DNA of 64,000 bases. Source: Chrysomallon squamiferum. Its lineage: Eukaryota; Animalia; Mollusca. The position numbers and the translations under genes were made by a program. The notes below the pieces were generated by a model, which saw only the letters and a program-made list of their open reading frames with translations, ran no database searches and was not told where the DNA came from. Location: the NCBI GenBank assembly GCA_012295275.1, contig CM022675.1:5890001-5954000 (forward strand), written 5' to 3'. This document shows positions 3,625 to 51,772 of this stretch, one piece after another. Within the stretch, counting starts at the first letter, position 1, and each line of letters starts with the position of its first letter.

Positions 3625-4516
3625 TACTCTCCAAAAAAAGAAACGCAAAATGGTTGATTTCTTAGATAACTATTGTAAACTGACACATATCGATGGCACA
3701 AACTATGAATATGATGATTCAAACGTACAGCTTTTGTTACAGTTGCCAAAAAGCAGGTAACACAAAATAAAGGCTATGATCGTGTTTATTGGCCAAAACG
3801 TCCCCGCATGCAAACCACGTTACCACGTTACCAGTCGTGGTGAACGTTTTGCTGCAAACTGCATAAATGAAGCGGACAGATTTGGCGGTGGCAGTGTGAT
3901 GGTGTGGGCAGCAATCTCATACACTGGCAGGACCAACCTGGTTCACCTCCAAGGCAACTTAACAGCACAGAGATACCGAGATGAAATTTTGCAGCCACAT
4001 TCGCTCCAATTATGAATAATGGTAACGCTGTATTCCAGCACGACAATGCGAGACCACATACAGCCAGACTCACAACAGCGTACCTACACAACAATAACAT
4101 TCAGGTCCTGCCCTGGCCCTCTAAATATCCGGATTTTAACCCTATAGAGCATTTATGGGACGAGTTGGATAGACGACTGAGGCAGCATCAACCACAACCA
4201 CAGAATCGTGCTCAGTTGACATTATTACTACAGACAGAGTGGGCCACCATTCCACAAGGTGTAATTCGTAATGTCATTACTGCCATGGGAAGGAGATGTC
4301 AGGCAGTTCTGGACTCCCATGGTGGGCACACAAGGTATTGATATTATGCTGTTATAACCTTGAACTTTAACCTTTTCAATGTAATACCATCAATATTAAT
4401 GAATTGCGAAAGTGTGAGTAAAATGTGAACATTCTGCTGCTTTCTGTTGATCCATTAGATAGATATATTCCCAATGTCAATAAAATCTACTTTTGCGTTT
4501 CTTTTTTGTTAGAGTA
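3625..4516 (+). mobile_element. Tc1/mariner (DD34E) DNA transposon, internally deleted (~890 bp)
   Basis: 26-bp TIRs TACTCTCCAAAAAAAGAAACGCAAAA (3625-3650) and TTTTGCGTTTCTTTTTTGTTAGAGTA (4491-4516), flanked by TA. Transposase motifs GGGSVMVWAAIS, FQHDNARPH and WPSKYPDFNPIEHLW, with 34 residues between D and E. Confidence 0.93.
3830..4341 (+). pseudogene. Truncated, frameshifted Tc1-family transposase (catalytic C-terminal half)
   Basis: Two overlapping ORFs (3776-4015, 4012-4341) join across a frameshift at ~4010. The N-terminal DNA-binding region and first catalytic D region are missing. Confidence 0.9.
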
Positions 4517-15614: not shown

Positions 15615-16930
15615 TCATCTAATTTACAACTAGAATTTCATTTTAATTCTTGAAAAAAAAAAATAACTAAACAAAAAAAAAAATTTTTTTTTTTTTTCGC
15701 ATATCAAGTAATGCCATTAACAAATTTATTATGATAATTAATATTAGTTTTATTTATTTATTTTTATTTTATTTCATTTCAACTGTATTTTATTATTCAT
15801 TTATTTTCTATTTTTTTATTTTTTTATTTATTACTCTTTATTATTATTATTATTAATTTAATTCAAAATTTTTTGTTATTTATTTATCTACAATATCTAT
15901 TTATTTATTTATGTATTTACTTATTTATTTTTAGAACAATATTTAACAAAATGGGATAGTAATAAAATAAATGAAGGTATGGATTTCTTTCTTTCATGAC
16001 TATAACTTAGTGAATTCATTCTTCTGCGCATCAGTACACACAATATCAGTACAAAAAAATAACAACAAAAAACCCTTTATGTATATAGTTCACATATCCA
16101 CTTGTTTCCAAAAAGGAAGTTTCTCTTCAGAATATTTTATTATTTTTTTATGGTTATTATTAAATTCTTCATTGTATATGAACGAGGATTCTTACAAGTA
16201 TATAAGGTAGGTATTAAACTTTCTATTTTATTCTCTTACACTTTTTTTTATTTATTTATTTACAATATCTATATATTTGATTAGACACTAGAGTAATAAC
16301 TATAATAATAATAACAACAACAACAATAGTAACAATATTAATAAAAAGAAGAAGAAGAAAATGATAAAGAATAAGGAAAACAAAAAGATTCATCTAACTT
16401 ACAACTAGAATTTCATTTTAATCATTGAAAAAATAAGGAACTAAATAAAATTTTATCATGAAAATCTTTATTTTTATTTATTTATTTTATTTCATTTCAA
16501 TTGTATTTTATTATTCATTTATTTTTTTATTTTTTGATATTTATTTATCTACAATATCTATTTATTTATTTATGTATTTACTTATTTATTTTTAGAACAA
16601 TATTTAACAAAATGGGATAGTAATAAAATAAATGAAGGTATGGATTTCTTTCTTTCTTGACTATAACTTAGTGAATTCATTCTTCTGCGCATCAGTACAC
16701 ACAATATCAGCACAAAAAAACAAAACAAAAAAAAACTTTATGTATTCAGTACACGATATAGGTCACATACCCACTTGTTTCCAAACAGGAAGTTTTGCAT
16801 CAGAATTTTTTTTAATTTTTTGTTTATGGTTATTATTAAATTCTTCATTGGATATGAACGAGGATTCTTACAAGTATATAAGGTAGGTATTAAACTTTCT
16901 GTTCTCTTACATATATATTGATTAGACACT
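15615..16930 (+). repeat. Local tandem duplication (two ~550-670 bp units) upstream of gene A
   Basis: ttcatctaa.ttacaactagaatttcattttaat at ~15615 and ~16389. Segments 15880-16290 and 16540-16930 are nearly identical, hence the paired ORFs MKVWISFF...YKYIR. Confidence 0.88.
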
Positions 16931-17642: not shown

Positions 17643-17849
17643 ATGGAGATGTACTTGTTGTTTGTATTATGTTACTCTGCACTGAGTGTTGCTGGTTCAA
17701 CACAAGGTAAATTTAATGATTTATTTGTACAGGATGCTTATCAAATATCAGGGTATATCTCTCAGTGTGGATTTATATCACTGTTTTAAGTAACATTATA
17801 TTTTTTCTGTATGTATGTAGCAGTCACAATTATCTTTAAAGTATAATTA

Positions 17850-17935
<86 letters not shown>

Positions 17936-18288
17936 ATAAAGAAAACTGCCTGCAAATGCAGAGAGAAGACAATGTATAATTTTGTTTTGTCTAATTCAGG
18001 TAACAGTAAATACAAAACTCAAACACAGATTCCTCTCTTGAATGTTCTACTACCAGCGCATGAACATGAACAGACAGCTTTTGATTTCTATCAGGGCAAA
18101 AGATTTTTAGAAATGTCGTACAACACCAACTCCAAGAACAACGGCATTGAGCTAGCAGCAATGGGATCAGACCTGCTTCAAGATTCTGGCAGTGGAAGTG
18201 GTAGTGGTAGTGGTGATGGAGGTATAAATATAGATACACAAAATAACTTCATCTTTTTCTCTCTCTTCTTCTGTGTCCATCTGTCTTT

Positions 18289-18336
<48 letters not shown>

Positions 18337-18714
18337 GTGTAAAACCAAAATAACAGCAATAAACTGAAAACAATATAAACATACTCACAAGTACATGCAC
18401 ACAGGTATGCATTTAATGGGCACAAAATTATTCAGAAATATATTATTATCATTAGTAGAGTAGTAGTATTACAACTACTGCTGTTGCTACTATTATTGTT
18501 GTTGTTGTTGTTGTTGTTATGATCATTTTTTTTTATATTTTTTTTTTACAGATGACACATCTCCTCCTGAAAGTAATAGTTTATAATTTACTGTTATTAT
18601 AGAAAAACACATGCATGCACACCCACACTTACACACACACACACACATAACTACACACTCACACCTCACACATTACACAGACATGCATACATACACACAC
18701 ATATACACACACAA

Positions 18715-18770
<56 letters not shown>

Positions 18771-19100
18771 TCATAACACACTGTATACCCACCAAACAAA
18801 CAAAGAAAACACTCACAGCCAGAAAACACAATGAGTGGGATGAATGTATTAATGTTGTTTAAAAACTTGATCTCTCTGCTTGGATTTCAGATACAAACCT
18901 GATCATTGGTCTTGTTGTAGGTATTGTAATAGTGGTGGCAATATCAGCTGTACTACTTTTTTTTATCTTAAAACGGTAACTATTGAAAAAAAGAAGACCC
19001 CAAACACACACACACACAAACATCCAGATATTAAAACAAACTGACAAACCTGAGCATGTAGATATAGCAGTAAATAAAACACAGAAATAAACACATCATC

Positions 19101-19142
<42 letters not shown>

Positions 19143-19912
19143 TTAATAATAATAATAATTATAATTATAATAGTAATAGTAATAACAAGAAGAAATACTA
19201 TTATTAGTATTACTACTATTACAGTTATCATTCTTAGTATTAATGATACTACCTCTACTACCACAACTAGAACCACTATTACTAATTACTACTATCTCTA
19301 CTGTTAGTACTTCTGCTACTACTACTACTATTACTGCTAGTGTTACTACTATCAATAGTATATTCTTCTGTTCCTATTATTATTGCTACTGCAAATATTG
19401 TTGTAAGTACTACTGCTACTACTACTACTACTACTACTACTATGACTACTACTATTCCTAATACTACTTCTGTCATTAACAATGATACTATTACTATTAT
19501 TACTGTTACCACTGCTAGTACAACTACAACAACATACTACTACTACTATTTTACAGGAGAAAAGCTGGGAAAAAGAAGAGACTTTTAGCTAGATTTGAAC
19601 AGAAGCAGTTAGCAGAGGAACCTAATGTCTACATAGATATTGTTCAAGAACATGATGCCAAAGAGTATGAACAGATTTTGTATTATTTTTATTTCTTTAT
19701 TTTAGTTTTTATTTTATTTTATTTTTATTTTATTTATTTATTTACATTTTATTAGTATTATTGTTTTTTTTTATTTATATTGCTTTTTATCTTTTTAATC
19801 ATATGAAAATGTTTTCTTCATTTTTATTAAAATGGCATCTTCATTTTTTTTTCATGAAGATAAGTTGAGTTATAAATAAATAAATAAATTTATTTATATG
19901 AACTTTTTAATA

Positions 19913-19953
<41 letters not shown>

Positions 19954-21424
19954 GCCTGTTTTTCTATACATAACATAGAAATACAAATAAACATTTGCAG
20001 AGATGATGTGACAAACACAAGGCAGACAACACACAATGAAGGAGACTATGACATCATCCAGAATGCTAGCTACGAGAACTCTAGGTAATTAACTTTTATT
20101 AGAATTAATATGTCTGTCTGTCTGTCTTTCCCTTTGTATCTCTTTCTGCACATCTATAATATATACATATGTATGTATGTGTGTGTGTATGTATCTGTGT
20201 GTGTCTGTGTCAACATAGCTACTTTTCTATGTACACATCTATCTATTTAGAAATATGCATCCTAATCTGTCTATCTATCTGTGTCTGTATCTGCTGTGTC
20301 TGTCTGTCTGTCTGTCTGACTGTCTGCCTGAAATTATTGTAACTATATATCTTTCACTTCATATATGCATAAACTAATCGACAGATATATACAAACATAC
20401 ATACATACACACATACATACACACATACATACATATATATATATATAAACTGTTTACAGACTGATGGAGAATGCTAACACAGGTGACACAAAAGAGCCTG
20501 AATATGAAAATGAACCTAGCACTAATAACGACGATACAAGGTGATTGATATTTTATATTTTCTGTCTGCCTATCTATATATAATTATCCATCTGCTTCTC
20601 TCTTCACAAACATACATACACAAACATATCTTACTGTCTATCTATGTATATGTCTATCTACACTTCTGCCCATCTAGAAATATGAGTCCTAGTCTATTTA
20701 TTTATCTGTCTCTGTTTTACTGTCTGTCAGTCCACCTTATCTGATTATAACTGCATATATCTTTCATTTCATATATGCATGCACTAATAGACAAAATATG
20801 TATGTATGTATGTACGTGCATATATAAGTGTGTGTGTGTGTGTGTATATAAATGTATATATATACAGACATATACATACATGCATATATATGTATATATA
20901 TATATTGTTTACAGGATGATGAAGATTGCTAATGCAACTGACACAACAGAGCCTGAATATGTAAATGAACTGAGCACTAATAAAGACAATACAAGGTGAC
21001 TGATGTTTCATATTTTCTTCTATCTATCTATCTCTATATCTATATTCATACATACATACATACATACATCTGTCTGTCTCGATGTCTGTCCATCTGTCTC
21101 TCCCAATTTTTCAGGGAAACAACAACTGCCTTTTAAAAACATTAATTACATCCATGAATTATATCCTTCTGTTATATCTTTAAACTAACTTAAATACCCT
21201 GACACTGTTTGATGCACATACATTAGTGATTTCAGACTGGCAAATAGACACGTGGCACTTACTGAAATGTCATTTGTCATGTTTTAAAATAAAAACTCTT
21301 TGCTCTATCAGTAATTCTCTTTTATGTCATGCTTTACCAGATTTACCTAATTTTGAGTGGAAATAACTCTACTTGTTTTAATTTTATTGTATACTGCTTT
21401 TTGTCATGTGTGTGTGTTTGTGTA

Positions 21425-21467
<43 letters not shown>

Positions 21468-21835
21468 ACTGTGTGTGTCCATGTATATATATTTATATAT
21501 TTATGTATTCTAATTAGAGAGATGGTGAAATCCATTGGATCAGAATATGAACATGTCAAGTTCGATGACTACATGAACACTAGGTAAATAATATTTTTGT
21601 TTATATTATACTTCTATCTGGTTTTTTATTTGTATTTTTTAATTTTATTTATTAATTTTTTATTTATTTCTGTTAAATTTAGTTTCAATTTTTTATTGTT
21701 TCCTGTTTGTGTGTGTATGTGTGTTTATATGCATTTGAGAAAATAGTACTGTGAGATATAAATTCGAACATTTGTTTTTCACATCCATTCAGTCATTTAA
21801 AATAAATCATTCATAAATTAAAACCCACTGCTTCA

Positions 21836-21910
<75 letters not shown>

Positions 21911-21957
21911 GTTTTTGTTTACATTTTAGGGAGAATGAATATGAAACACTCTCCTGA
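17643..21957 (+). CDS. Gene A: single-pass membrane protein with Ser-Gly ectodomain and multi-tyrosine cytoplasmic tail (transmembrane-adaptor-like), ~279 aa, 10 coding exons
   Basis: Phase-consistent GT-AG exons: 17643-17706 (signal MEMYLLFVLCYSALSVAG), 18000-18221 (..DSGSGSGSGSGDG), 18552-18572 (21-nt microexon), 18891-18975 (TM LIIGLVVGIVIVVAISAVLLFFIL), 19557-19664 (alternative donor 19679 adds a YEQI motif), 20001-20084, 20460-20540, 20915-20995, 21518-21583, 21930-21957 (..ENEYETLS*). Total 840 nt, open frame throughout. Confidence 0.85.
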
Positions 21958-22156
21958 ACATCTTAAATAGAAACACCATCAAGAGATGCAAAAGCATAAA
22001 GAAAGAAAAGAAAGACAACTATGTACAGTTGATCCCAGTAATTCAAATCACCTAACTTTTCAAGTGGATATTTAATTTGTCAAGTGGATATTAGTTTTTG
22101 CACTGCCCACATTCTTGTAACTTTATTTTGTACCTAATATTATTTTACTGCATCAT

Positions 22157-26521: not shown

Positions 26522-26676
26522 ATGACAGCGTTGATCCCAGTTTTGTGTTTTTGTTTTTTGTTAACAGCGTTTTCAGAAAAACTCGGTAAGTACCGTTAAT
26601 TGTATCTGAAGAATGCTGGCTTATCTCGGTTCATATCAAACAGACAAATAATTGTATAAACATAAACATTCATTCA

Positions 26677-26712
<36 letters not shown>

Positions 26713-27253
26713 TATATATTTATTTACTCACGCACGTGTGTTTGTCTATTTTCTTCAAATTCATTTTAAAATAATATTAAAGTAACTATATTAAATATAT
26801 TAATTATTTTATTATTGTGAAAAAAAAAGTAATATAAATACTTAAATATGTAAAGGGATTACCGATGTGTATAATTATCTAGAATTAACTAACTCAACTT
26901 TCAGTGTGTTCGGAAATGTGTTTTACATAATAAATACACACGTACATACATATAGATATACAATCACAGAAACACACGTACAAATGATATACATACACAC
27001 GTACATACAAACATACACACGTACATACAAACATACACACGTACATACAAACACACACATATATGAATACATACACACATACATACTCACACACAATACA
27101 CACACACATACACATACAAACATACACAGATATATTCACACACATAAAATATACATACGCATACACATACAATCATACATATATGCACACAACACATATA
27201 TACATAAACACTTACTAATCAGACGCACATAAGAAAGAGAATATTCAAATCCT

Positions 27254-27307
<54 letters not shown>

Positions 27308-27653
27308 TACAGACACATACAGAAATACATGGTGACAGAGGGAGAGACATACATCTACGTGAAGAGAGCTGAAGAACTGAGGTGAACGTTTTAAATTTCA
27401 GCTTTCTGGCGGAATCCAAAGAGTACGTTCTTACATGATGAGTCCTTTATCACCGAGCCGTTGACGTGGTGGGATGCTGCTGGCGAAGGCTGTGGCGACG
27501 ACGGCGTTTTGTTGTCACGCGAAAATATCGATGATGACCTTGGAATAGATATGACACATTCTGAAAAATACTGGATAGGCGCTTTGGAAACTTACACAGC
27601 CTGGATATGGACAGGTACGTGTACTGGGGGTTGGGGGGGTACGTTAATTATTT

Positions 27654-27693
<40 letters not shown>

Positions 27694-29183
27694 TGTGCGT
27701 GTTTATATATACGTGTGTTGGTGAGATGTGACAAAAAAAAATTAAATTAGTGTCTTAGATTTATGATTGAATATATATTTATACATTTATTTTTTCTTAT
27801 TTTCAGGGGGCTAGGGTTCTCTGGAGGTTTATTTTTTTATTTTTTTTTATTTTTTTTTTATTGTTTTTCCTTGTTTGTTTTTGTTTTTCTGTTGTTTATA
27901 TATATATATATATATATATATTTATTTATTTTTTTAAAGTAAAAATAAATGCCAAATAAATAAATTTAACAATAAATGCCATGCAAAAATAAAATAAAGA
28001 TAAAACAAATACAGATGTAGATAGAGACCAACAGATAAATATATCAATAGATAGATATTTTAAAAAAGATAGCTAGATAGATATAGATATATAAAACAAT
28101 AAAATGAACTAATAAAATGCACGCTGATACTTTTGTGTTTACATTTCAGAAGATAATTCGTCACTCTTTGTTCTTAATGGATCCTTGAATGCTTCCGTTA
28201 AACAATTGTTCACTTCCGTTGAAGAGATCAGTGACAACGCCCCCTATCAGTGTTACAGAAGATGCAAGAGGGCTTCTATAGGTTTACAGGTTATAAACAA
28301 AAAATAAAATCTTATAAAATAATTATAATTTCATTTATATTATTATTATTATTATTATTATTATATTGTTCTTGTTGCTGTTATGTCATTGTATTTGTGT
28401 TAAATGTTTGTTAAAGTGCGTTATAATGTCCGCATATTAGAGTTTATATAATATTGTGTTTACATTAAACTGGTTATGACACATAGTTAATGTTATATTT
28501 ATATTAGAGTGTTTATGATATAACGTGTGTGTTATAGTGTCTATATTACAGTGTTCGAAATATAGTGTTTGTTCTAAAGTGTATATGTAATGGTGTTTCT
28601 AATACAGTGTCTGTGTTAGAGTATTTATATTGCAGTGTACTATAGTATGCGGTTTATATCAAAGCGTCAACATTACAGTGGATATGTTGCAGTTGTTTAT
28701 GTTATAGTGTTTATATTGCAGCGTCCAGATTACAATGTTTATGTTAGATTGTAAATGCTATAGTGTTTTTATTACTGCGACTGCATTATAGTGTTTACGT
28801 TACCGTGAATATGTTATAGTGTGTTCCATTACCGTATGTGTTTGATGATTATGTTAGAGGCTGTTTCTTAGCTTTTGTAATGACGGAGTATATGATACAG
28901 AGTTTATAACACAGGGAAAGAAATGCTATTGTCTGACGTCATCACCGCCAACCACACGTCATATTGATGACGTCAAATGTCCTGGCTCGTTCTATCAGTT
29001 CTGTGGAAGTGCCGACGTCATGTCAGTTTATAATATAGGTAAATCTGCGCATATGTTTGTGCGTGTGCGTATGTGTGTGTGGTTTCTTTTATAAATAATA
29101 ATAGTAATTTTCAGTGGCTAACAATGTGTTTTTTATAAATTTTGTAGTTGATAAAATGAAAGTTATTAATTTATTTATTTGCA

Positions 29184-29237
<54 letters not shown>

Positions 29238-30545
29238 CATCATCATCATTATTATTATTATCATCATTATTATTATTGTTATAATTATAATTGTTATTAT
29301 TGTTATTATTATTATTTAATTGTTTTAATTGTTTTCCTTTTTTTTTTTTTTTTTTTAATCTGTTCATTATTCCACTAATATTTCCAGATTTACCCAAAGA
29401 TCTGAAGTTTGACAACCTCGAAGATGTCAGTTGCGGATATCTTTACGGAAAACATCATCTTATTTTCAAAAATGATTTTGAACTAAGATGTGACAAATCG
29501 TGTGATAGTGAACTGTATTACACTTGTCCAGGTGATCTCCTAATGTCTTTGTTGTTGCTGTTGCTGCTGCTATTACCACTACTACAACTATTACTACTAC
29601 AGGCACTACTGCTCCTTCTACGATTAGTGGTACTGCTGATACTATCACGACGACTACCACTCTACTACATCTAATACTACTACTACTAATATTACTATTG
29701 GCTCTAGTACTATTACTTCTATTACTTTTATTACTACTACCAGTGGTACTAATGCCACTGTTTTAAAGTTAAATGCAGTATTATTTCTAATACCAGTTTT
29801 TCATGCCTTTTAGCCCAATACAAAAAACAAAACAGAATAAAAAAATAAAAATAAAAAACAACAAAAACAACAACAATAAGGTTAAACGTAAATAAATAAA
29901 TATAATTATAGCATCATTATCATCATCAATAACAACATCAGCAGCAACAACAACGACAACAGCAATAATAATAATAACAACAAATCTTTACAGAAAGGAA
30001 AAAAACGATCAAACACAAAAAGTAATAAAACTTGATGAATAAAACAACAACAAACAACAAAAAAAAAAAAAAAAAAAAAAAAAAAATAAAAAAAAAAAAA
30101 AAATAAATAAATGAAAAAAATAAATAAATAAATAAATAAAAATAAAACGAAAACGGAAAATGAAATAGAATAATATACACACAAAATATTTACATCTTAC
30201 ATAGAAAAACGTTACGACGGTGATGACGCTGATTGTAAAAATGGAGTCTGTGTGTCTACAGAGAGAGCAACGTGGAATATCTCCATGTCTAAGTGCGATA
30301 ATCAGCTTTACAAACTGACAGATGACGTCATCAGTGACATCACCAATTTGATATCAGACCACCTCGGTCTGTTAAAAGGGACGAAAGAGTACTGGGTTGG
30401 ACTGAAGAGATCCAGAAAGTTTAAATGGACGGATGGTAAGAAACGGTGTCAGAATCTTGTTTTGTTCATTAGACGTTAATGAAAATACCCTACAAGAATT
30501 CAGTTCCATAGATATAACTCTGAAATACTGTATTTTTTTTATTTT

Positions 30546-30602
<57 letters not shown>

Positions 30603-31240
30603 TAAAATATATGGCTGTTGTGATTTTAGCATATTTGTTTTATTTTATTTTTGTTTCGTTTTATTTAATATCGTTTTTTCTTCTTCTTTTTTTGTTGTTG
30701 TTGTTGTTCTTCTTCTTTCTTCTTCTTCTTCTTCTTCTTCTTCTTCTTCTTCTTCTTCTTCTATTATTATTATTATTAGATAATGTTTTCTAACTGTTTT
30801 AAAATTATATATATATATTTGCGGGGTTTTTTTTAATTTACACTTCAGGCATTGACTTTGAAGAAATGTTTCAAAATGAAAACAGCAACTCGCTGAAATG
30901 TGTCTATATGCTCCTGACAGAAACAGGACAAAGAAAATTTGGATTCTTGGACTGTAACAAAGAACTCCGTGCAATTTGTCTTACGAGTACGTCTGCATTT
31001 TTATGAAAATAATTTCGATAAAGTTGGAATTCAAGTCGATTAGTTGTTGGGATTGCTTCAATCTGTGTACATTCAGACTTTATTATTATAAAGTTTCATC
31101 TGTTAAAAAAAAAAGATGTTGTCATTATTGTTGTTGTTGTCGCTGCTGCTGCTGTTGTTATTATTATTACTATGATTGCTTATTTGCTGTGTTCTCTTTT
31201 CTTCTTACTTACTTACTTACTCATATTAATACTATTACAC

Positions 31241-31297
<57 letters not shown>

Positions 31298-34178
31298 AAT
31301 CATCGCCATCACATCAACATCACCATCATTATCATCATCATTATTATTACAGTTTACATCAAAAATACTTTTTATTTTCAACTGTGTATTGTGACTTGGG
31401 TTTATTTTGTAGAAAAACGTATTACAACAACATCCACCCAAACTTCAACACAACGTCCACAGTCGACTGTTACTATTGATCAGTCTACGATGTACACAGT
31501 GAACACCAGGAGAACATCGACGTCGTCAACAGTAACACCAGCATCAATAGCAAAATCTGATAATGCAGAATATATTTCAGGCAAGTTAATAACTACAGTA
31601 GTAGTAACAGCATCACTAGTCTTACTAGAGTACTTCATAGCAGTTAGAGTAGCAGCATAGCTCAAGAGTAGTACAGTAGAAGTAGCAGTTCTATTAGCAG
31701 TGGTAGCAGTAACAGCAACAGCAGTCTTAAATGAGTAATTCCCTATAGTAGGAGTTGTAGCATAGTCATAATAGAGGAATCTAAGGATTGATCAGCCATT
31801 TTAAAGATATTTGGCTATTTCACCCAAACCTTGATAGCTGTTGACTGAAAAGCTGTTGATGCTTATTGCTCTCGATTACAATAGAGAGTTTGATAGTTGC
31901 CTTCAACAACATCGTTGTGGGATACACGTATAATAAGAGGTCCATTTCAGCCCATCGAAGCCCAGGGTAAGGGGCCAATGAGCCACCCACCAGGGTCCTA
32001 CGGGCAACGATCTCAAACAGTGAAACTAGCTAGAAACAACAAACAGTAAAATTCCTTTTTTTAATTCCTGCCATAAATTTCTTCTGAGATGCTCGTACTG
32101 TAATAAACTAAGGAGTGAATTACATTTTCAGCACACTGACCTCAGTCTATGACATACTGTGCTACTGGCTCATGTTTTCAGTGTAGTTTCAAGAGTCCTA
32201 AACTAATGCTTGAATATTATTCAAGACTGAACCTGTGAAAACTGCCACTGAATTGTATGATTTACCTTCTGCCTTTTGGTAGTTTGCACAACAGAAAATT
32301 AAATCTGCCTCAGCTGAGTTTATTTCTTCCTGGACAGGCTCAATAAATGCGTATGACATAGTGTCCCTGGGAAATTTTTCCGAGAAATTATACTTCATTG
32401 TCCACAGTGTCATCTTTTGGTTGTATGATTACATCGATGTAGTAAACAGTGCTTTTCATTAGCTCTGTTTGTCTTCCATTCTTCCTCTCTAGGCATTCTT
32501 TTTATACCAGACACAGCACTTTAGTCTTTCCTGGACAAAAGTAATACCAGTAATTAATTATATAAAAAGTAATATTGATTTTTGTAGCTATATGTTCCTC
32601 TGAAATGCAGTGGGATCCAATGACACACCAGCCCATGGGTCCCCTTTGAAAATGGCTCATTGTTCCCCAACACCATTTTCATTATGTTAGCCCATGAAAT
32701 AAAAACTGTATTAAATTTTAGAAGTCAAAAGAAATAACTAAAAAAAAAAATAAAAAAAAAAAAAAAAAAAAAAAACGTTACAGGATCTATGAATGATGTA
32801 TTATTATCTTAATATTAAATTGTAACCAAAACACAAAAGAAATTGCTCAAGTTACTCAAAACTGATATGTTGATCAATAGCTCAGCTTTCTAAACACTAC
32901 GGTGAAGATCATATCTATAGTAGTTGCATTGATGGTGGATATAATCATGTCACTATCATTTTGCAGTCAGACGTCTATGGCCCATAGCTCATCGAACCCC
33001 AGTTTTCCCTAGTAGTCTCACTATAGTACCTGTTCTAGTAGTAATCACCTTTGCAGTGGTAGCAATAGTTGTAGTGGTAATAGTAGTAAGAGTAGCAGTA
33101 GTAGTTGTAGTAGTAGTAGTAGTCGCAGTTGTGATTGTAGTAATAGTAGTAATACGAGTAGTATGTAGCAGTGGTAGTAACAACAGTAGTGATAAAACCT
33201 GTACTTCTGTGATTATTTTCAGGAGGTCAGGTGACTGGTGTTGCAGTTGGAGGTGTGATAGTCTTTTTAGTTGGTGTTGTTGTAGTAGTAATCTGGATGA
33301 GAAGGTAAGTTTTGTTTTCAACAGTGATACCATACAATGTACCTTGTGCTCGTATGAACAAATGGTTCAGTACCAATTTCTCACTTTAAATGTATTTTGC
33401 TGTTGCCATGGGCGACCTATCATCACGTTTAACGAAGTATCGCAAAATGTGAATGCCGCCATCTTATCCCGTCACAATAAAACTATGACGTCATTTTTTT
33501 CCTTTCTCACAACATAAAAGAAAGAAAAGCAAATTGGTTCCCATTGTACGCGATGACGTCATCACTTCTATAGAAATAAAACTAAATGGCGACGCCCAGA
33601 TATTTCAAAAGTGAACTGTTTTACTGTTATATTTTATTAATGATAATAAAACTGACTTTATTATATTTCAGTAAAAAGAGATGTTGTTTCAAATCGCTAA
33701 AATCGTACGACATCTCCAGCAACGTTGAACTCCAGTCAGTCGGTACATCTAGAGAAACCCAGTAGGTTTACTTTTTAATTTACGGACACGTCAGAATTAC
33801 GAGAATAAATGTGTATATATTTCATTTTTGCATGCATATACCACATAAAACAATAAGTAGATAGATAGACTGATTCACACACACACGTACACACATATAC
33901 ACACATAAAATAATATATGTGCTGATTTCCATACAGACGGACATACAGACGGACAGAAAGACAGAAATAAATACATATAATAGTTAGTTTTCGTAGGACT
34001 GTGTTCAACTTTTGTGGTATGTGTGTACTGCAAAACAGTAGCTAGTTATTCTCAAAACAAACAAAATGCTCAGCTAAGGTGAGGCTCTACAGAGCTGCAT
34101 CGCGCATTTCGACCTGAGCTGGATACAACTTGTATCTTAAGCCCGTAACTATGTACAATGCTGCAGGACACACACACA

Positions 34179-34222
<44 letters not shown>

Positions 34223-35053
34223 TACATACATGCATATATGCGTATATATATAAACATCACATATTCCAGACATATGGACGAATACGCACAACCGATGAAA
34301 AGTCGTAAAGTAGCTACATCGACAGCCTCGGACGAAAATACTTATTACAACGTTGCCATGGCATCTACAGAGACACCCGATTACATCCTTGACGTTTACC
34401 AGCTTGCAGCATCTCCTGGTACCAATCTTCAAGCGGATCGTTTGAACATGACCAGTTTCAGTAATGACTATGAACCGGAACTTTCCCTTGATGAGCGTTC
34501 TAAAACCAGTCTTCAGGCGAGTAATGTTAAGACAACTAATTTAGATAATGTCTACGAACTAGCCGCATCCTCCGATGAACGTTCCACAGCCACGTTTCAA
34601 GCGGATAATGTCAACATAACCAGTTCAGATAATGTCTACGAACTGCCAGTGTCTCCTGACTATATTTCTAAAACCCATCATCAAGCGGATCATTTCTACA
34701 AAACCAACCCAGACAACGATTACGAGCTTGCTGTCTCCCCTGACTCAAACGATGAACCCAGCGTGTCCGCGGAACATTTCAATAAAACCAGTGGACAAGA
34801 TGATTACGAGGCTGTCAGTACAGGAAGTGACGTAAGGTATGAAAATCCGAAAGACTTTTTGAGTGAAGACTATGACACGTTCAGTGGGGAAAAAAATATT
34901 GGAGACCTAGGTGAGACTTACAGTCATATTGCAGATGTCGTCGTGAACGATGATTTGTATAACACGACAGAAAGAAAACCACGTGAACACGGTGATGACT
35001 ATCTCTACAATCACATGAACGGAGATGAGTTGCTGAAGGACGAAATAACATAA
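26522..35053 (+). CDS. Gene B: type I membrane receptor (signal, CTL-like domain split by WSC, second CTL-like domain, S/T stalk, TM, Tyr-repeat tail), ~725 aa, 11 coding exons
   Basis: Exons: 26522-26585 (signal MTALIPVLCFCFLLTAFS), 27402-27614 (LTWWDAAGEGC..YWIG..WIWT), 28150-28289 and 28915-29038 (WSC: QCYRRC..IGLQGKKCYC..KCPG..FCGS..MSVY), 29388-29531 (C..C..C), 30205-30435 and 30849-30986 (TWNISMSKC..YWVGL..FKWTDG..KCV..LDC..RAIC), 31413-31580 (S/T-rich, GC donor), 33223-33304 (TM), 33672-33761, 34270-35053. Total 2178 nt, phases consistent. Confidence 0.88.
28390..28830. repeat. Degenerate ~20-bp tandem repeat in an intron of gene B
   Basis: Recurrent gtt/attatagtgtttatat units. Confidence 0.55.
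31740..33010. mobile_element. Probable decayed transposon insertion in the GC-AG intron of gene B
   Basis: Complex, higher-GC block with broken minus-strand frames. It interrupts a (GTA)n-type tract and ends in ...ccccagttttccc. No TIR pair or TSD recognised. Confidence 0.3.
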
Positions 35054-36986: not shown

Positions 36987-38455
36987 AACAGTGATCACAC
37001 TGAAATAAATATTAGTTACTGACAAGTGAAACAGTGATCACACTGATATAAATATTAGTTACTGACAAGTAAAACAGTGATCACACTGATATAAATATTA
37101 GTTACTGACAAGTGAAACAGTGATCACACTGATATAAATATTAGTTACTGACAAGTAAAATAGTGATCACACAGATATAAATATTAGTTACTGGTAAGTA
37201 AAACAGTGATCACACTGATATAAATATTAGTTACTGACAAGTAAAATAGTGATCACACAGATATAAATATTAGTTACTGGTGATCTCACTGATATAAGTA
37301 AAACAGTGATCACACTGATATAAATATTAGTTACTGACAGGTAGATAAATATTAGTTACTGATAAGTAAAATAGTGATCACACTGATATAAATATTAGTT
37401 ACTGAAAAGTGAAACAGTGATCACACTGATATAAAGATTAGTTACTGACAAGTGAAACAGTGATCTCACTGATATAAATATTAGTTACTGACAAGTGAAA
37501 CAGCGATCACACTAATATAAAGATTAGTTACTGACAAGTGAAACAGTGATCACACTTATATAAAGATTAGTTACTGACAAGTAAAACAGTGATCACTCTG
37601 ATATAAAGATTAGTTACTGACACATGAAATAGTGATCACACTGATATAGATATTAGTTACTGACAAGTAAAACTGATCACTCTGATATAAATATTAGTTA
37701 CTGACAAGTAAAATAGTGATCACAGATATAAATATTAGTTACTGACACATGAAATAGTGATCACATTGATATAGATATTAGTTAATGAAAAGTAAAACAG
37801 TGATCACACTAATATAAAGATTAGTTACTGACAAGTAAAACAGTGATCACACTGATATAAATATTAGTTACTGACAAGTAAAACAGTGATCACACTGATA
37901 TAAATATTAGTTACTGACAAGTAAAACAGTGATCACACTGATATAAATATTAGTTACTGACAAGTGAAACAGTGATCACTCTGATATAAATATTAGTTAC
38001 TGACAAGTAAAACAGTGATCTGATATAAATATTAGTTACTGACAAGTAAAACAGTGATCACACTGATATAAATATTAGTTACTGAAAAGTAAAACAGTGA
38101 TCACACTGATATAAATATTAGTTACTGACAAGTAAAACAGTGATCTCACAGATATAAATATTAGTTACTGACAAGTGAAACAGTGATCACTCTGATATAA
38201 ATATTAGTTACTGACAAGTAAAACAGTGATCTGATATAAATATTAGTTACTGACAAGTAAAACAGTGATCACACTGATATAAATATTAATTACTGAAAAG
38301 TAAAACAGTGATCACACTGATATAAATATTAGTTACTGACAAGTAAAACAGTGATCACACTAATATAAAGATTAGTTACTGACAAGTGAAACAGTGATCA
38401 CACTGATATAAATATTAGTTACTGACAAGTAAAATAGTGATCACTCTGATATAAA
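36987..38455. repeat. 43-bp minisatellite, ~34 copies
   Basis: Unit aaacagtgatcacactgatataaatattagttactgacaagt(a/g); period 43 measured between GTGATC at 36991 and 37034. Degenerate units extend left to ~36430. Confidence 0.96.
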
Positions 38456-39090: not shown

Positions 39091-41039
39091 TTACTCTTTG
39101 CTCCAAGTGAATATTTTGACTTGACCACCCTGCTGTGCTGCATAAAGTACATTTTTATGAAAACAGACACAAAGTGGTCTGTACAGTCCATCCTGGTCAG
39201 TGATAATGTTTCGGACAATTTCTCCATCAGCTGATAACTGGACAATATAATTTCTATGAAAACTGCAGACATAAACAAACCCGTCTGGGTCACATGTAAC
39301 ACCAAACAGAGGATAAAACAACATATTTTCAGGATGTGACCTCCAAGTAACGACACCTGACAATGTCATACACGTTACCGTCTTTGCAGAAACAACAAAC
39401 AGAGACTGTCCTGTCACTGTTAGAGCATTGACTTTTTTAAACACTTCTGAAAATGACTGAATGATATGACCCTCCTCATCCAGGATGTCCACATAATTAT
39501 TATCAAACCACCATATATAGCTGACTGCCAGATGGTTGCCTGGTAACATTGAAATATACCTGTATTTTTTATCCGTTTTCAGTTTTTTTGTCACATGTAA
39601 AATTCACCTTCAAGTTGTAAATATAAAATTGTATAGATATATGGCAAAGTGATAACAACCTGACTGTCAGGTGATTCACAAAGACCAAATGGTTGACTTT
39701 CAAGTTTGTATTCACTAAGACATTTAGAATCTTCAAAGGAGAAACATTTGACAGATTTTTGGTAATAGTCAGTCAAAAGAATTATACTTTCTTTTTCTTT
39801 TCCTAAAACTAGGATGGAGCATGGATAATATACCTGTGTGTCAATTATTTTAATTATTTTCAATCTGTCTGTCTCTCTGTGTGCTTGTGTGCATGTTAAG
39901 TGCAATTGTGCACTTTGTGTTTCTAGCACAGATTTAATATTTGCTTTCTGAACTTCAACAACCTGAATTTGACTTTTTGACTTTTGACAGGAAATCTGAT
40001 ATTTCTTTTCGTTGATTGACAAATGTCGAAATGTTTTCCTGAATTTTATCAGCTGAAGAATTAACTGAAAGATCCTCACCGAATTTGATCATCTCCTGAC
40101 ATGCACTAATCAGTTCTCTGTGTTTTTTAAAACTGTTTGCGATTTCTTTTTCAATATTTTGTTCTGATTTTTCAAGTTCTTTTTTTAATTTCTTCCCTTC
40201 TTCTTGGATTGATTGCATTAACTCGTTCACCTTTCTGTCTATCTCCTGGCCTGACTTGTCTACGGTCATTTTTAAGTCTCTTCGAATTCTTTCTGTCTTG
40301 GACTCCATGTTTTCTGTTAAATTACATTTTAAAGACTTCAGAGCCTCACAGATTGATTGTAGGGTTTCAGTTTTCGGATGAACATCATCACCTCGAAATA
40401 TAAATATTTACATTAATTTCTTATTAGCAACAGCAGTAGTAAAACATTTAAAAAATTTACAGTGTGAACAATAATTTATTATTTACTGTTTCATGATACA
40501 AATGTGTGTATATATATATATGTACATGTTTATTGAAAACAACAATGATATTTCTAATAATGTTTCATAAAAAAAATTAAAAAAAAAAAAAAATTCTATG
40601 TTTTAACAAATAAGTCTTTTAATGCCAATTATGATATATGTACAATTAACACAATTCAGTCTATAAACACTTGACCTGTCAGTCATTGTTCACCAATGAG
40701 CATTTTCTTTTTTTTTTTTTACTTACTTATTTTCGTTTTCCTCAATGTACTTATAATGTTCATCAATGTGATGTTTTCTGGAAACTCGTCTGCCCACGAC
40801 GACTTTGGTCTTGTGCTATGTGATATGTTTATTATGTTCCCGCAGACAGGACATACAAAATTGTTGTCGTCATTGCTGCTGTTGATGTGATTTTGCAAAC
40901 ACAGTTTGCAAAATGAGTGACCACATGCAAGTATTTTGGGGTCTTGGTAAACATCCAAACAGAGACTGCAGGTAACATCATCCACTATGTGGGCAAACGC
41001 TGTGGCCATATCTGAAATATTTTTAACGTCTCTGAACAT
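39091..41039 (-). pseudogene. TRIM-like E3 ligase (RING, coiled coil, NHL/SGL-type beta-propeller; no B-box) with two 1-nt frameshifts
   Basis: Exon 41039-40727 has C3HC4 RING CSLC..PKILACGHSFCKLC..CPVC and donor A|gtaagt. Exon 40391-39091 has a coiled coil, then repeats PCSILV, PFGLC, PLFGVTCDPDGFVYVC, PLCVCF. Frame breaks at ~39975 and ~39600; acceptor is a non-consensus GAG. Confidence 0.82.
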
Positions 41040-41218
41040 TGTAATAACTAATTATAATAATGAAAAGTTAATTCTATTTAAACAGGTCACGTGATGTATG
41101 ATATTTAATTAGTTCCTTAAAACTTTATTTTAAGAAAATTATCAACATTTTTAATCTTTTGTTATTTCTACTTCACACTTTATTATTTTAACATAAATAC
41201 ATAACATTGTTTTAAATT

Positions 41219-50310: not shown

Positions 50311-50602
50311 ATTTTAATTTCAACTATATTTATTCTTTGTCTTTCAAGGGATGACTTCAGTACACACAGAAGTTCTCAGACTCGTGGGTTTGTTGTTTGT
50401 TGTGTGTTTAATACTTGTCACCCCGTCAAAAAAAGAACGTCAGTGTGAAGAGAAATGTGCAAAGATCGACATTCGTCTATCCAGAATGATGCACAAATGG
50501 GCAAGAATGCGTCCCAGAATAGGTAGGTACAGCTTGATATTTAAAACATTTCAAACTGTATGTAATAGGTGCAGATCAGAAAATAAATGGACAGCGAGGT
50601 TT

Positions 50603-50687
<85 letters not shown>

Positions 50688-51772
50688 TAGGTAGAAATTA
50701 AAATAGATGAATATATAGACAGACAGACCAGATATATGTATATTGCACATATACATGTTTGTAATTTTATGAATATATATACATATAGACAGGTAGTTAG
50801 GCAGACATGTAGATATTCAAAGAGGCAGACAAATAATAAGAAAGATAGATACAGACACTGACAAGATACATAAAACTGACAAACAAGCAAGCAAGCAGAT
50901 TGAATAAATAAGAAAACCACAACAGAATCACTGGCTCAGAAATCTTTTATTTCTTCTTTTATTAAAGAGTTATTATATAAGGGAGATAACCAATACATAA
51001 CATAAATGGTCGCGCCAACTTGAGTCACTCAGATAAATTCTTAAGTACGAATCAAATTGTTGGTAAATTATTTTCCTTTTTCGTGTAGGAAGCACGTTCG
51101 ACAAACTACTTCACATTATGGAATCAAAATCAAACGAGTGGAAGTATGTGCCGAAGCAGCACAAGCAATTTTTGGCACTGGTAAGAAAGTTCAGAAGATG
51201 CATGAAGAAATGTAAGAAGACGTAACCGATGCACTGTTGTCAGAGAAGAATTTTTTTTTATAAAAGACTGTGTAAGTTTTTGGTTGATAACTAGATATTC
51301 TATCATACAGGTGTCATTACTGCTATCACCCTTACTACTATTACTGCTAATACTGTTATTACTATTACCACGTTTGGTAGAAATAATACTATTACTACAG
51401 CTGTCGATGTTTGTGCTACTACAAAATATATTATTATTAATCTGCTAGTGCTACTACTACTGTTACTGCTAATACTTCTACCACTACTACCAATACTACT
51501 GCAATTAGTGCTACTGCAACTTAAACTTGTACCACGATGCAGAACAAAAACAACAATAAAATAATCATATTGAAAACAAAAATGAGAAATTATCAAACAA
51601 TAATTATTTTAAAATGTAGATGTATATTTATCATATATGCAAGATATAAATTTTTGATCTTTCTTTAAAGTACATATTTATTTTCTTCTAACGAATTTTC
51701 AGGTAGACGTCTGAATAAAAAAAACTGAATAAAGATTATTTGCATGTTATTTATTTATCATCATCATCATCA

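Follow-up and report, generated by a model that had tools for sequence, protein, structure and literature searches.

In a tandem domain swap, as defined by Lafita et al. (2019, PMC6863430), a terminal domain is built from the outer halves of tandem domains, a central domain is circularly permuted, and the two are connected by hinge loops; according to this 2019 review, the structure of no such swap had been solved, and a precedent was needed. Structural repeats that are swapped or permuted with respect to the sequence repeats were described for potato type II inhibitors (PMC2259423) and PAA/OAA lectins (PMC11186620), and the literature searched contained natural swapped repeats in other folds and none in the C-type lectin fold. 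C-type lectin-like (CTL) domains, in which the first strand pairs with the last one (PMC6468738), occur with WSC in single proteins, a combination that Saco et al. (2023, PMC10140915) count among the unique architectures of bivalves; in a supplement file of that work, WSC does not occur. Among the gill proteins reported from a mussel transcriptome is a “WSC domain-containing protein 2” (PMC4581086), and the Gigantopelta aegis genome paper presents C-type lectins as pattern-recognition receptors, with WSC unmentioned in the main text (PMC7895826). The subject here is a receptor gene of Chrysomallon squamiferum, lying within 64,000 nucleotides of contig CM022675.1 (GenBank assembly GCA_012295275.1, positions 5,890,001 to 5,954,000, forward strand), a stretch referred to below as the window. 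Its 11 exons, located on the + strand at 26522..35053, join into an open frame of exactly 725 amino acids (aa), which reads as signal peptide, CTL N-half, WSC, CTL C-half, then another CTL N-half and C-half, a stalk rich in Ser/Thr, one transmembrane helix, and a tail rich in Tyr. The ectodomain comprises about 330 aa and the cytoplasmic tail 291 aa. Structure predictions suggest that the lectin halves of this protein probably pair crosswise rather than in the order of their exons.

The four halves are named N1 (exon 2), C1 (exon 5), N2 (exon 6), and C2 (exon 7). The ectodomain of the closest relative, the G. aegis protein P0009 (XP_041372371.1; 32% identity over 715 columns), was modeled with AlphaFold2 (329 aa), and the best of five models reached a predicted local distance difference test (pLDDT) value of 81.6 with a predicted template modeling (pTM) score of 0.76; the pLDDT values of the five were 81.6, 77.1, 74.1, 63.9, and 55.9. 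When this model was used in a wide structural search with VIA-align, all 50 listed matches were CTL domains, aligned over 87–116 residues at an rmsd (root-mean-square deviation) of 2.0–4.4, and they started at residues 1–20 and ended at residues 327–329 of 329. A second VIA-align search gave starts at 8–16 and ends at 327–329 for 50 of 50 listed matches. E-selectin aligned over 107 residues in the range 16–328 (Z 12.2, rmsd 2.3), and the unit composed of exons 2 and 7 matched CTL domains of known structure along their full length, with Z up to 12.2. Given the pairing of the first and last strands in a CTL domain, these match ranges place N1 and C2 in one domain. With the same model, Foldseek superposed halves of 55–59 columns at 2.9–4.6 Å, while CTL alignments of 117–184 columns superposed at 18–24 Å; since the superposition holds for halves only, exons 6 and 7 do not form one compact domain in this model.

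The pairing of exon 2 with exon 7 was also predicted by a second program, which works without alignments and was given window exons 2, 5, and 7 as three chains. Exon 7 scored 0.62 (0.57–0.64 among runs), the best of three controls 0.02; among solved complexes, 51 of 78 attain the mark applied to such scores, and among mismatched pairs, 2 of 108 do so (71 of 105 and 2 of 126, respectively, in eukaryotes). Contacts agreed between runs to at least 78%, and the pLDDT of the partners was at least 60. In this prediction, exon 7 outcompetes exon 5 for exon 2, and the interface listed for it is with exon 2 only, through the usual CTL contacts (Y78-W79-I80 on V324-M326 and L345-I348). Once exon 7 is taken, C1 and N2 are left contiguous and are confidently folded in the full P0009 model (residues 171–250, block pLDDT 86–95), and for this reason exons 5 and 6 most likely form a circularly permuted CTL domain. 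The probable topology is then an outer domain of exons 2 and 7 and a permuted inner domain of exons 5 and 6, with WSC on one hinge. In its predicted form, this arrangement corresponds to what is defined as a tandem domain swap: the terminal domain combines the first N-half with the last C-half, and the permuted domain would be the central one.

The original prediction had proposed another arrangement, in which exons 2 and 5 build one CTL domain with WSC protruding from it as a loop, followed by an ordinary, uninterrupted CTL domain built from exons 6 and 7. This is the simplest reading of the exon order, and the linear order of the modules on which it was built was borne out. The three C-half cysteines are kept in exon 5, and one short relative, P0018 (262 aa), stops shortly past the exon 5 part, although it may be a fragment. 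Exons 6 and 7 in line also match Lectin_C and the CTL domains of natural killer (NK) receptors end to end. However, when exons 2–5 of P0009 were folded alone, the overall pLDDT was 45, with 27–46 for the CTL halves and 60–73 for WSC only, and structural searches with this piece gave no CTL match; its input alignment was checked and found sound. The co-folding of exons 2 and 5, which the original prediction had itself named as a test, thus failed in silico: the piece did not adopt a CTL fold, and in both the full model and the three-chain prediction it was exon 7 that paired with exon 2. The same pairing of exon 7 leaves exons 6 and 7 without in silico support as an uninterrupted domain. The nested arrangement is therefore regarded as unlikely.

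Several points weigh against the swapped topology. The evidence for it consists of prediction throughout, and the whole-ectodomain fold is that of P0009, whose exons are 30–56% identical to those of the window gene, not of the window gene’s own chain. The best of the five AlphaFold2 models was inspected through alignment ranges rather than coordinates, and the underlying alignment is shallow (21 rows, mostly from one species). The inner domain is supported by its confidence values rather than by a permuted superposition. The three-chain job was run without exon 6; halves of split domains tend to pass through their likeness to solved structures, and a pass, by the tool’s own warning, leaves open which family member binds. 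A false swap is known for another tandem, the PDZ domains of whirlin, which AlphaFold 3 swapped in five of five models, unlike the experimental model, though with a pTM of 0.52–0.53, lower than here (PMC13664925). Exons 6 and 7 in line pass Lectin_C in two (P0008 and P0014) of the nine full or partial G. aegis relatives with at least both exons, and their end-to-end match to NKR-P1 (E = 1e-7) fits ordinary tandem folding equally well. Moreover, C227 is lost in two of eight relatives, where C52 and C259 are not correspondingly lost, so covariation of cysteines does not separate the topologies. The disulfides would do so: C52–C349 and C259–C227 are expected for the swap, C52–C227 and C259–C349 for the nested order, and because of this difference a disulfide-locked swap is readily testable.

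The halves could also pair between molecules, or both pairings could coexist, giving swapped dimers or open/closed switching. Snake-venom lectin-like CTL domains dimerize by a swap at the same long loop (PMC6468738), and exons 2 and 7 associated as separate chains in the complex prediction. In addition, the closest relative has a RefSeq isoform X2 (P0004, compared with P0009) from which the half equivalent to exon 7 is missing, which would leave an unpaired lectin half whichever topology holds. Against this stands the single P0009 chain, which folds fully and confidently by itself in the model, and pairing between molecules is considered quite improbable.

Returning to the intramolecular swap, the domain placed on its hinge was identified mainly by its fold. 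WSC domains canonically contain eight cysteines in four disulfides, one of which connects strand 1 to loop L5 in Wsc1 (PMC9024836, PMC5014086). The insert encoded by exons 3 and 4 contains six of these eight cysteines, spaced as in three of the four disulfides, and judged by the spacing, the absent one is that between strand 1 and L5. Exon 4 scored 16.2 bits with Pfam WSC (PF01822), below the curated cut-off of 27.8 bits, as did the relatives that match (13.1–19.4 bits). Scanned exon by exon, Pfam gave nothing relevant for exons 2 and 3 and no lectin match for exon 5, a search of PDB sequences with exon 4 returned no match, and the family profile matched yeast Wsc1 weakly (E = 0.57). The predicted model of the insert, with a PAN/apple-type fold and a long L5 loop, is more informative. 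Its top four of 23 structural matches were WSC-bearing chains (Kremen1, Wsc1, and fungal glyoxal oxidase) with Z 6.0–6.3, values rated as middling, rmsd 3.4–5.4, and 80–90 residues aligned, and the next match had Z 3.7, with other PAN domains at no more than this value. The top Foldseek match was Wsc1 (probability 0.97, E = 0.034). The CGG motif position reads CGS in the window protein and most relatives, CGG in P0008, and CGD in P0021. By its predicted fold, then, the insert is a divergent WSC-like domain, and the WSC identity given to exons 3 and 4 in the original prediction is supported despite the Pfam score; the motifs quoted there for exons 2–4 are all present.

The lectin halves have the core features of the CTL fold, including the YWIG and YWVG strands and the set of four core cysteines in each domain. 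C52, C259, C196/C219, C323/C341, and C349 are invariant, and C227 is present in seven of nine rows. Scanned one by one, exons 6 and 7 scored 17.3 and 16.6 bits with Lectin_C (PF00059), below the curated cut-off of 22.6 bits; among the relatives, P0014 (28.3 bits) and P0008 (24.9 bits) matched and the others gave no match. Identity between the halves is about 20%, and profile comparison relates them weakly (N1 to N2, E = 0.002 with a probability of 5.5%; C1 to C2, E = 0.2). The family profile over the second repeat matches NK-receptor-type CTL domains best, and the best PDB sequence matches are NKR-P1, CLEC2D/LLT1, CLEC5A, and Ly49. Calcium-dependent sugar binding needs WND in strand 4 as well as a long loop with EPN or QPD (PMC6468738). 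Neither these motifs nor WSD, EPD, or QPN were found in any of nine ectodomains, which bears out their reported absence, and the window protein thus lacks the motifs of a Ca2+-dependent sugar-binding C-type lectin. As to the idea that WSC replaces the sugar-binding loop, exon 5 retains about 15 residues ahead of its first Cys, so the long loop looks interrupted, not wholly replaced. The accompanying statement that both folds bind glycans was too strong, as a glycan pocket is not apparent in yeast Wsc1 (PMC9024836), the Kremen1 WSC binds the protein DKK1 (PMC5014086), and the second repeat is closest in sequence to NK-receptor-type CTL domains.

These last features leave room for a different function, under either topology, in which the head serves in structure or adhesion by binding a host protein and is not a pattern-recognition receptor that senses microbes. 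The complete lack of Ca2+/sugar motifs, the NK-receptor-type sequence matches, and the protein ligand of Kremen1 speak for it. On the other side, the family is expanded, with five G. aegis loci on one 35-Mb scaffold, and its loops are rich in indels, expansion and variable loops being typical of non-self recognition; 13 of 15 changed exon 6 codons alter the amino acid in one contig, though with p = 0.37. Host-protein binding is accordingly kept as a tentative alternative with odds well short of even, whereas a role in recognition or immune-type signaling appears fairly likely. That the ligand is a glycan is conceivable, at a somewhat less than even chance.

Variability is concentrated in loops. 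Long insertions in relatives fall in the columns of residues 280–289. Four public sequencing runs contain parts of the window, three of them being RNA from one study. In run X3, exon 6 stands above its surroundings with 21 differences in 263 bases, and in run X4 it has 16 differences in 353 bases, compared with 70 in 4066 for the remaining listed pieces (p = 0.001), a higher divergence that is partly biased by unequal likeness cut-offs between the two contig searches. From the 18 listed of the 21 differences, 13 codons of the X3 contig change the amino acid, nine of them within residues 271–289, and two are silent; the excess of amino acid over synonymous changes is not significant as a sign of positive selection in exon 6 (p = 0.37). 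The X3 variant may be an allele or a paralogue.

The tail contains 19 tyrosines, 17 of which are directly preceded by an acidic residue, as well as two YxN motifs, one YxxM motif, and Y[SN]Hx, which is common to all six relatives checked. Motifs of the YxN/YxxM type dock SH2 proteins. A loose pattern detected a motif like the immunoreceptor tyrosine-based inhibitory motif (ITIM) in six of six relatives and one like the corresponding activation motif (ITAM) in five of six, a search made with no chance control; a canonical ITIM or ITAM is absent from the tail of the window protein, which counts against the signaling part of the explanation below. It is proposed that the three lobes would pack together as a single compact head carried by the mucin stalk, with the domain of exons 2 and 7 adjoining the stalk and the permuted domain of exons 5 and 6 facing away from the membrane. 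The ligand would be recognized outside the cell without Ca2+, through contacts with exon 6, at its variable alpha2 loop, and with the hairpins that exons 5 and 7 encode, and clustering might then lead to phosphorylation of the tail tyrosines and docking of SH2 proteins. Such a head could have arisen if a two-exon CTL unit was duplicated, a class 1-1 WSC module was then inserted into the intron where the first long loop begins, and the CTL halves re-paired afterwards. The explanation as a whole, joining a swapped CTL tandem with a WSC hinge, Ca2+-independent recognition, and signaling through the Tyr tail, is judged slightly more probable than its failure. The further proposal that the swap is native, fixed, and enabled by the WSC insertion at the long-loop intron, that it places a circularly permuted lectin domain, along with WSC, within another lectin domain, and that it heads an expanded polymorphic vent-snail family reading microbes or symbionts, falls a little below an even chance.

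The relatives that could be named all come from one snail. A phmmer search with exon 2 against 1.84 billion representatives gave eight matches, seven relatives and one spurious protein (P0006), which was discarded because of its unrelated repeats; P0007 was excluded from every alignment. Two further profile searches gave six and eight matches, from G. aegis in every case. The full-length relatives are uncharacterized G. aegis proteins (LOC121385671/675/676/366/124 and LOC121392484/030/031, e.g., XP_041372371.1). Of the 17 ectodomain cysteines in the window protein, 15 are kept in every relative covering them, C227 in six of eight, and C215 in none of eight, being private. A word-indexed search with exon 2 among longer proteins returned eight candidates, none a relative, tblastn found no paralogue inside the window, and a scan of metagenomes gave three pattern matches, none a relative. 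In the ESM Atlas, feature matches reached at most 0.81, and a 60-member molluscan cluster had a template modeling (TM) score of 0.39, under the bar for naming.

The gene almost certainly encodes a real single-pass membrane receptor. The exon positions and the length of 725 aa given in the original prediction were reproduced when the open frame was rebuilt by joining the exons, and the proposed joining agrees with RNA contigs from three runs, which span all ten exon joints; these contigs support the joints and carry no information about expression level. Joints 1-2 (X1, X2, and X3), 9-10, and 10-11 were spanned in three runs, joints 2-3, 3-4, 5-6, 6-7, and 8-9 in two, and joints 4-5 and 7-8 by one contig each, with 28 letters on the short side of 4-5. 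One opposite-strand joint in run X2 was taken as an assembly chimera. The script that joined the exons gave intron phases of 1,1,0,1,1,1,1,1,2,2. The phase-1 flanks of the exon 3-4 pair, proposed as a sign of exon shuffling, are thus correct, but they are not peculiar to WSC because seven of the first eight introns are in phase 1. Similarly, the claimed identical two-exon split of both CTL repeats is a near-match, as the introns after exons 2 and 6 lie one codon apart relative to W-x-W. The window is AT-rich (GC fraction 0.24–0.39). The coordinates are collected in Table 1.

Table 1. Receptor gene exons and other features of the window (positions count from its first letter; partners of lectin halves as predicted).
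Feature	Positions	Strand	Content
Exon 1	26522..26585	+	Start codon; hydrophobic stretch resembling a signal peptide, aa 1-21
Exon 2	27402..27614	+	CTL N-half N1: beta1, alpha1 with C52, alpha2, YWIG strand, W-x-W; predicted partner exon 7
Exon 3	28150..28289	+	First half of WSC: C127, C131, GLQ
Exon 4	28915..29038	+	Second half of WSC: C143, C145, C161, C169; CGS replaces CGG; E = 0.012 with Pfam WSC, under the cut-off
Exon 5	29388..29531	+	Loop remnant and CTL C-half C1: C196, C219, C227; putative circular permutant with exon 6
Exon 6	30205..30435	+	CTL N-half N2: C239-C244 hairpin, C259, YWVG; variable alpha2; Lectin_C E = 0.008
Exon 7	30849..30986	+	Short loop and CTL C-half C2: C323, C341, C349; Lectin_C E = 0.014; predicted partner exon 2
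Exon 8	31413..31580	+	Mucin-like stalk, Ser/Thr 45%; followed by GC-AG intron
Intron between exons 8 and 9	31581-33222	+	Stalk to transmembrane exon; GC-AG with GC donor; spanned by contigs of two RNA runs
Exon 9	33223..33304	+	Sole transmembrane helix, about aa 410-433; hydropathy peak 3.0
Exon 10	33672..33761	+	Juxtamembrane basic stretch and Cys-Cys pair
Exon 11, coding part with stop	34270..35053	+	Acidic cytoplasmic tail; 18 of the 19 tail tyrosines
Transposase fragments	3761-4338	+	DDE_3 (Tc1/mariner-type), two frames, E = 2.7e-9
Local duplication	about 15870-16240 and 16530-16910		About 350 bases; two open frames that resemble each other
Upstream membrane gene	17644-21958	+	Small, single-pass, about 10 exons; short ectodomain with Ser-Gly repeat run, preceded by signal peptide; transmembrane exon near 18891-18976; tail of short exons, each with Tyr-Glu motifs
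Tandem array	about 36990-38450		Long, unit of roughly 40 bases, seen by eye; downstream of the receptor gene
TRIM-like remnant	39094-41051	-	RING finger (E = 1e-11), coiled coil, and beta-propeller-like end over several frames
Short open frame	50318-50698	+	Signal-peptide-like stretch, four cysteines; no Pfam match

Two of the neighbors deserve comment. In the upstream membrane gene, the Ser-Gly run is a possible set of glycosaminoglycan sites, and the product may be a co-receptor or an adaptor; Pfam gave a doubtful match only for its ectodomain exon. The TRIM-like remnant is likely a broken gene or an intron-poor pseudogene because its parts are spread across several frames.

If the swapped topology is correct, the receptor would be a rare natural case of neighboring domains permanently folded into each other, and it would show that exon shuffling can rewire which exons make up a domain. 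It would also explain why linear domain annotation misreads such proteins, as in the closest relative, P0009, which has no Pfam match to Lectin_C or WSC. The results point to an expanded family of receptors that lacks annotation, in a snail for which symbiont recognition is an open question (PMC7895826). Were the swap an artefact of prediction, a WSC within a lectin domain would still be undescribed, though a more modest architecture; in the literature searched, with most subscription papers outside the search, no description was found of WSC inside a CTL domain or of a swapped CTL tandem.

Compared with known systems, the G. aegis relatives are the closest, as their modules follow the same order and their cysteines, transmembrane helix, and tail rich in Tyr are shared with the window protein, which differs by its long branch (best ectodomain identity 44%) and the extra C215. 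The NK-receptor CTL domains of NKR-P1 and CLEC2D are alike in their short long-loop and lack of Ca2+ motifs, a likeness that implies no orthology. NKR-P1 and CLEC2D are single-domain type II proteins, unlike the window receptor. The WSC domains of Kremen1 and yeast Wsc1 have the same PAN-type fold (Z 6.2–6.3) and belong to type I membrane proteins with a stalk, whereas the WSC described here lacks the strand 1–L5 disulfide and sits inside a CTL repeat. The bivalve proteins combine both domains in one molluscan protein and, in the available text, appear as a domain list with no nesting, split halves, or swap described (PMC10140915). In snake-venom C-type lectin-like proteins, two CTL domains without sugar motifs also lie face to face through the long loop (PMC6468738), but these are two separate secreted chains with a loop-only swap and no WSC, and the resemblance is purely geometric. 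Potato type II inhibitors and PAA/OAA lectins are naturally swapped or permuted repeats as well, though of unrelated folds, soluble, and without an inserted domain. The tandem domain swap of Lafita et al. (2019, PMC6863430) comes nearest in topology, with the outer-half terminal domain and permuted central domain that are predicted here; however, those swaps are described there as misfolding products of near-identical repeats, while the window protein has strongly diverged halves, a swap predicted as native, and a whole domain on one of its hinges. The receptor contains known parts in a new arrangement, in which WSC sits between lectin halves that are predicted, and likely, to pair crosswise.

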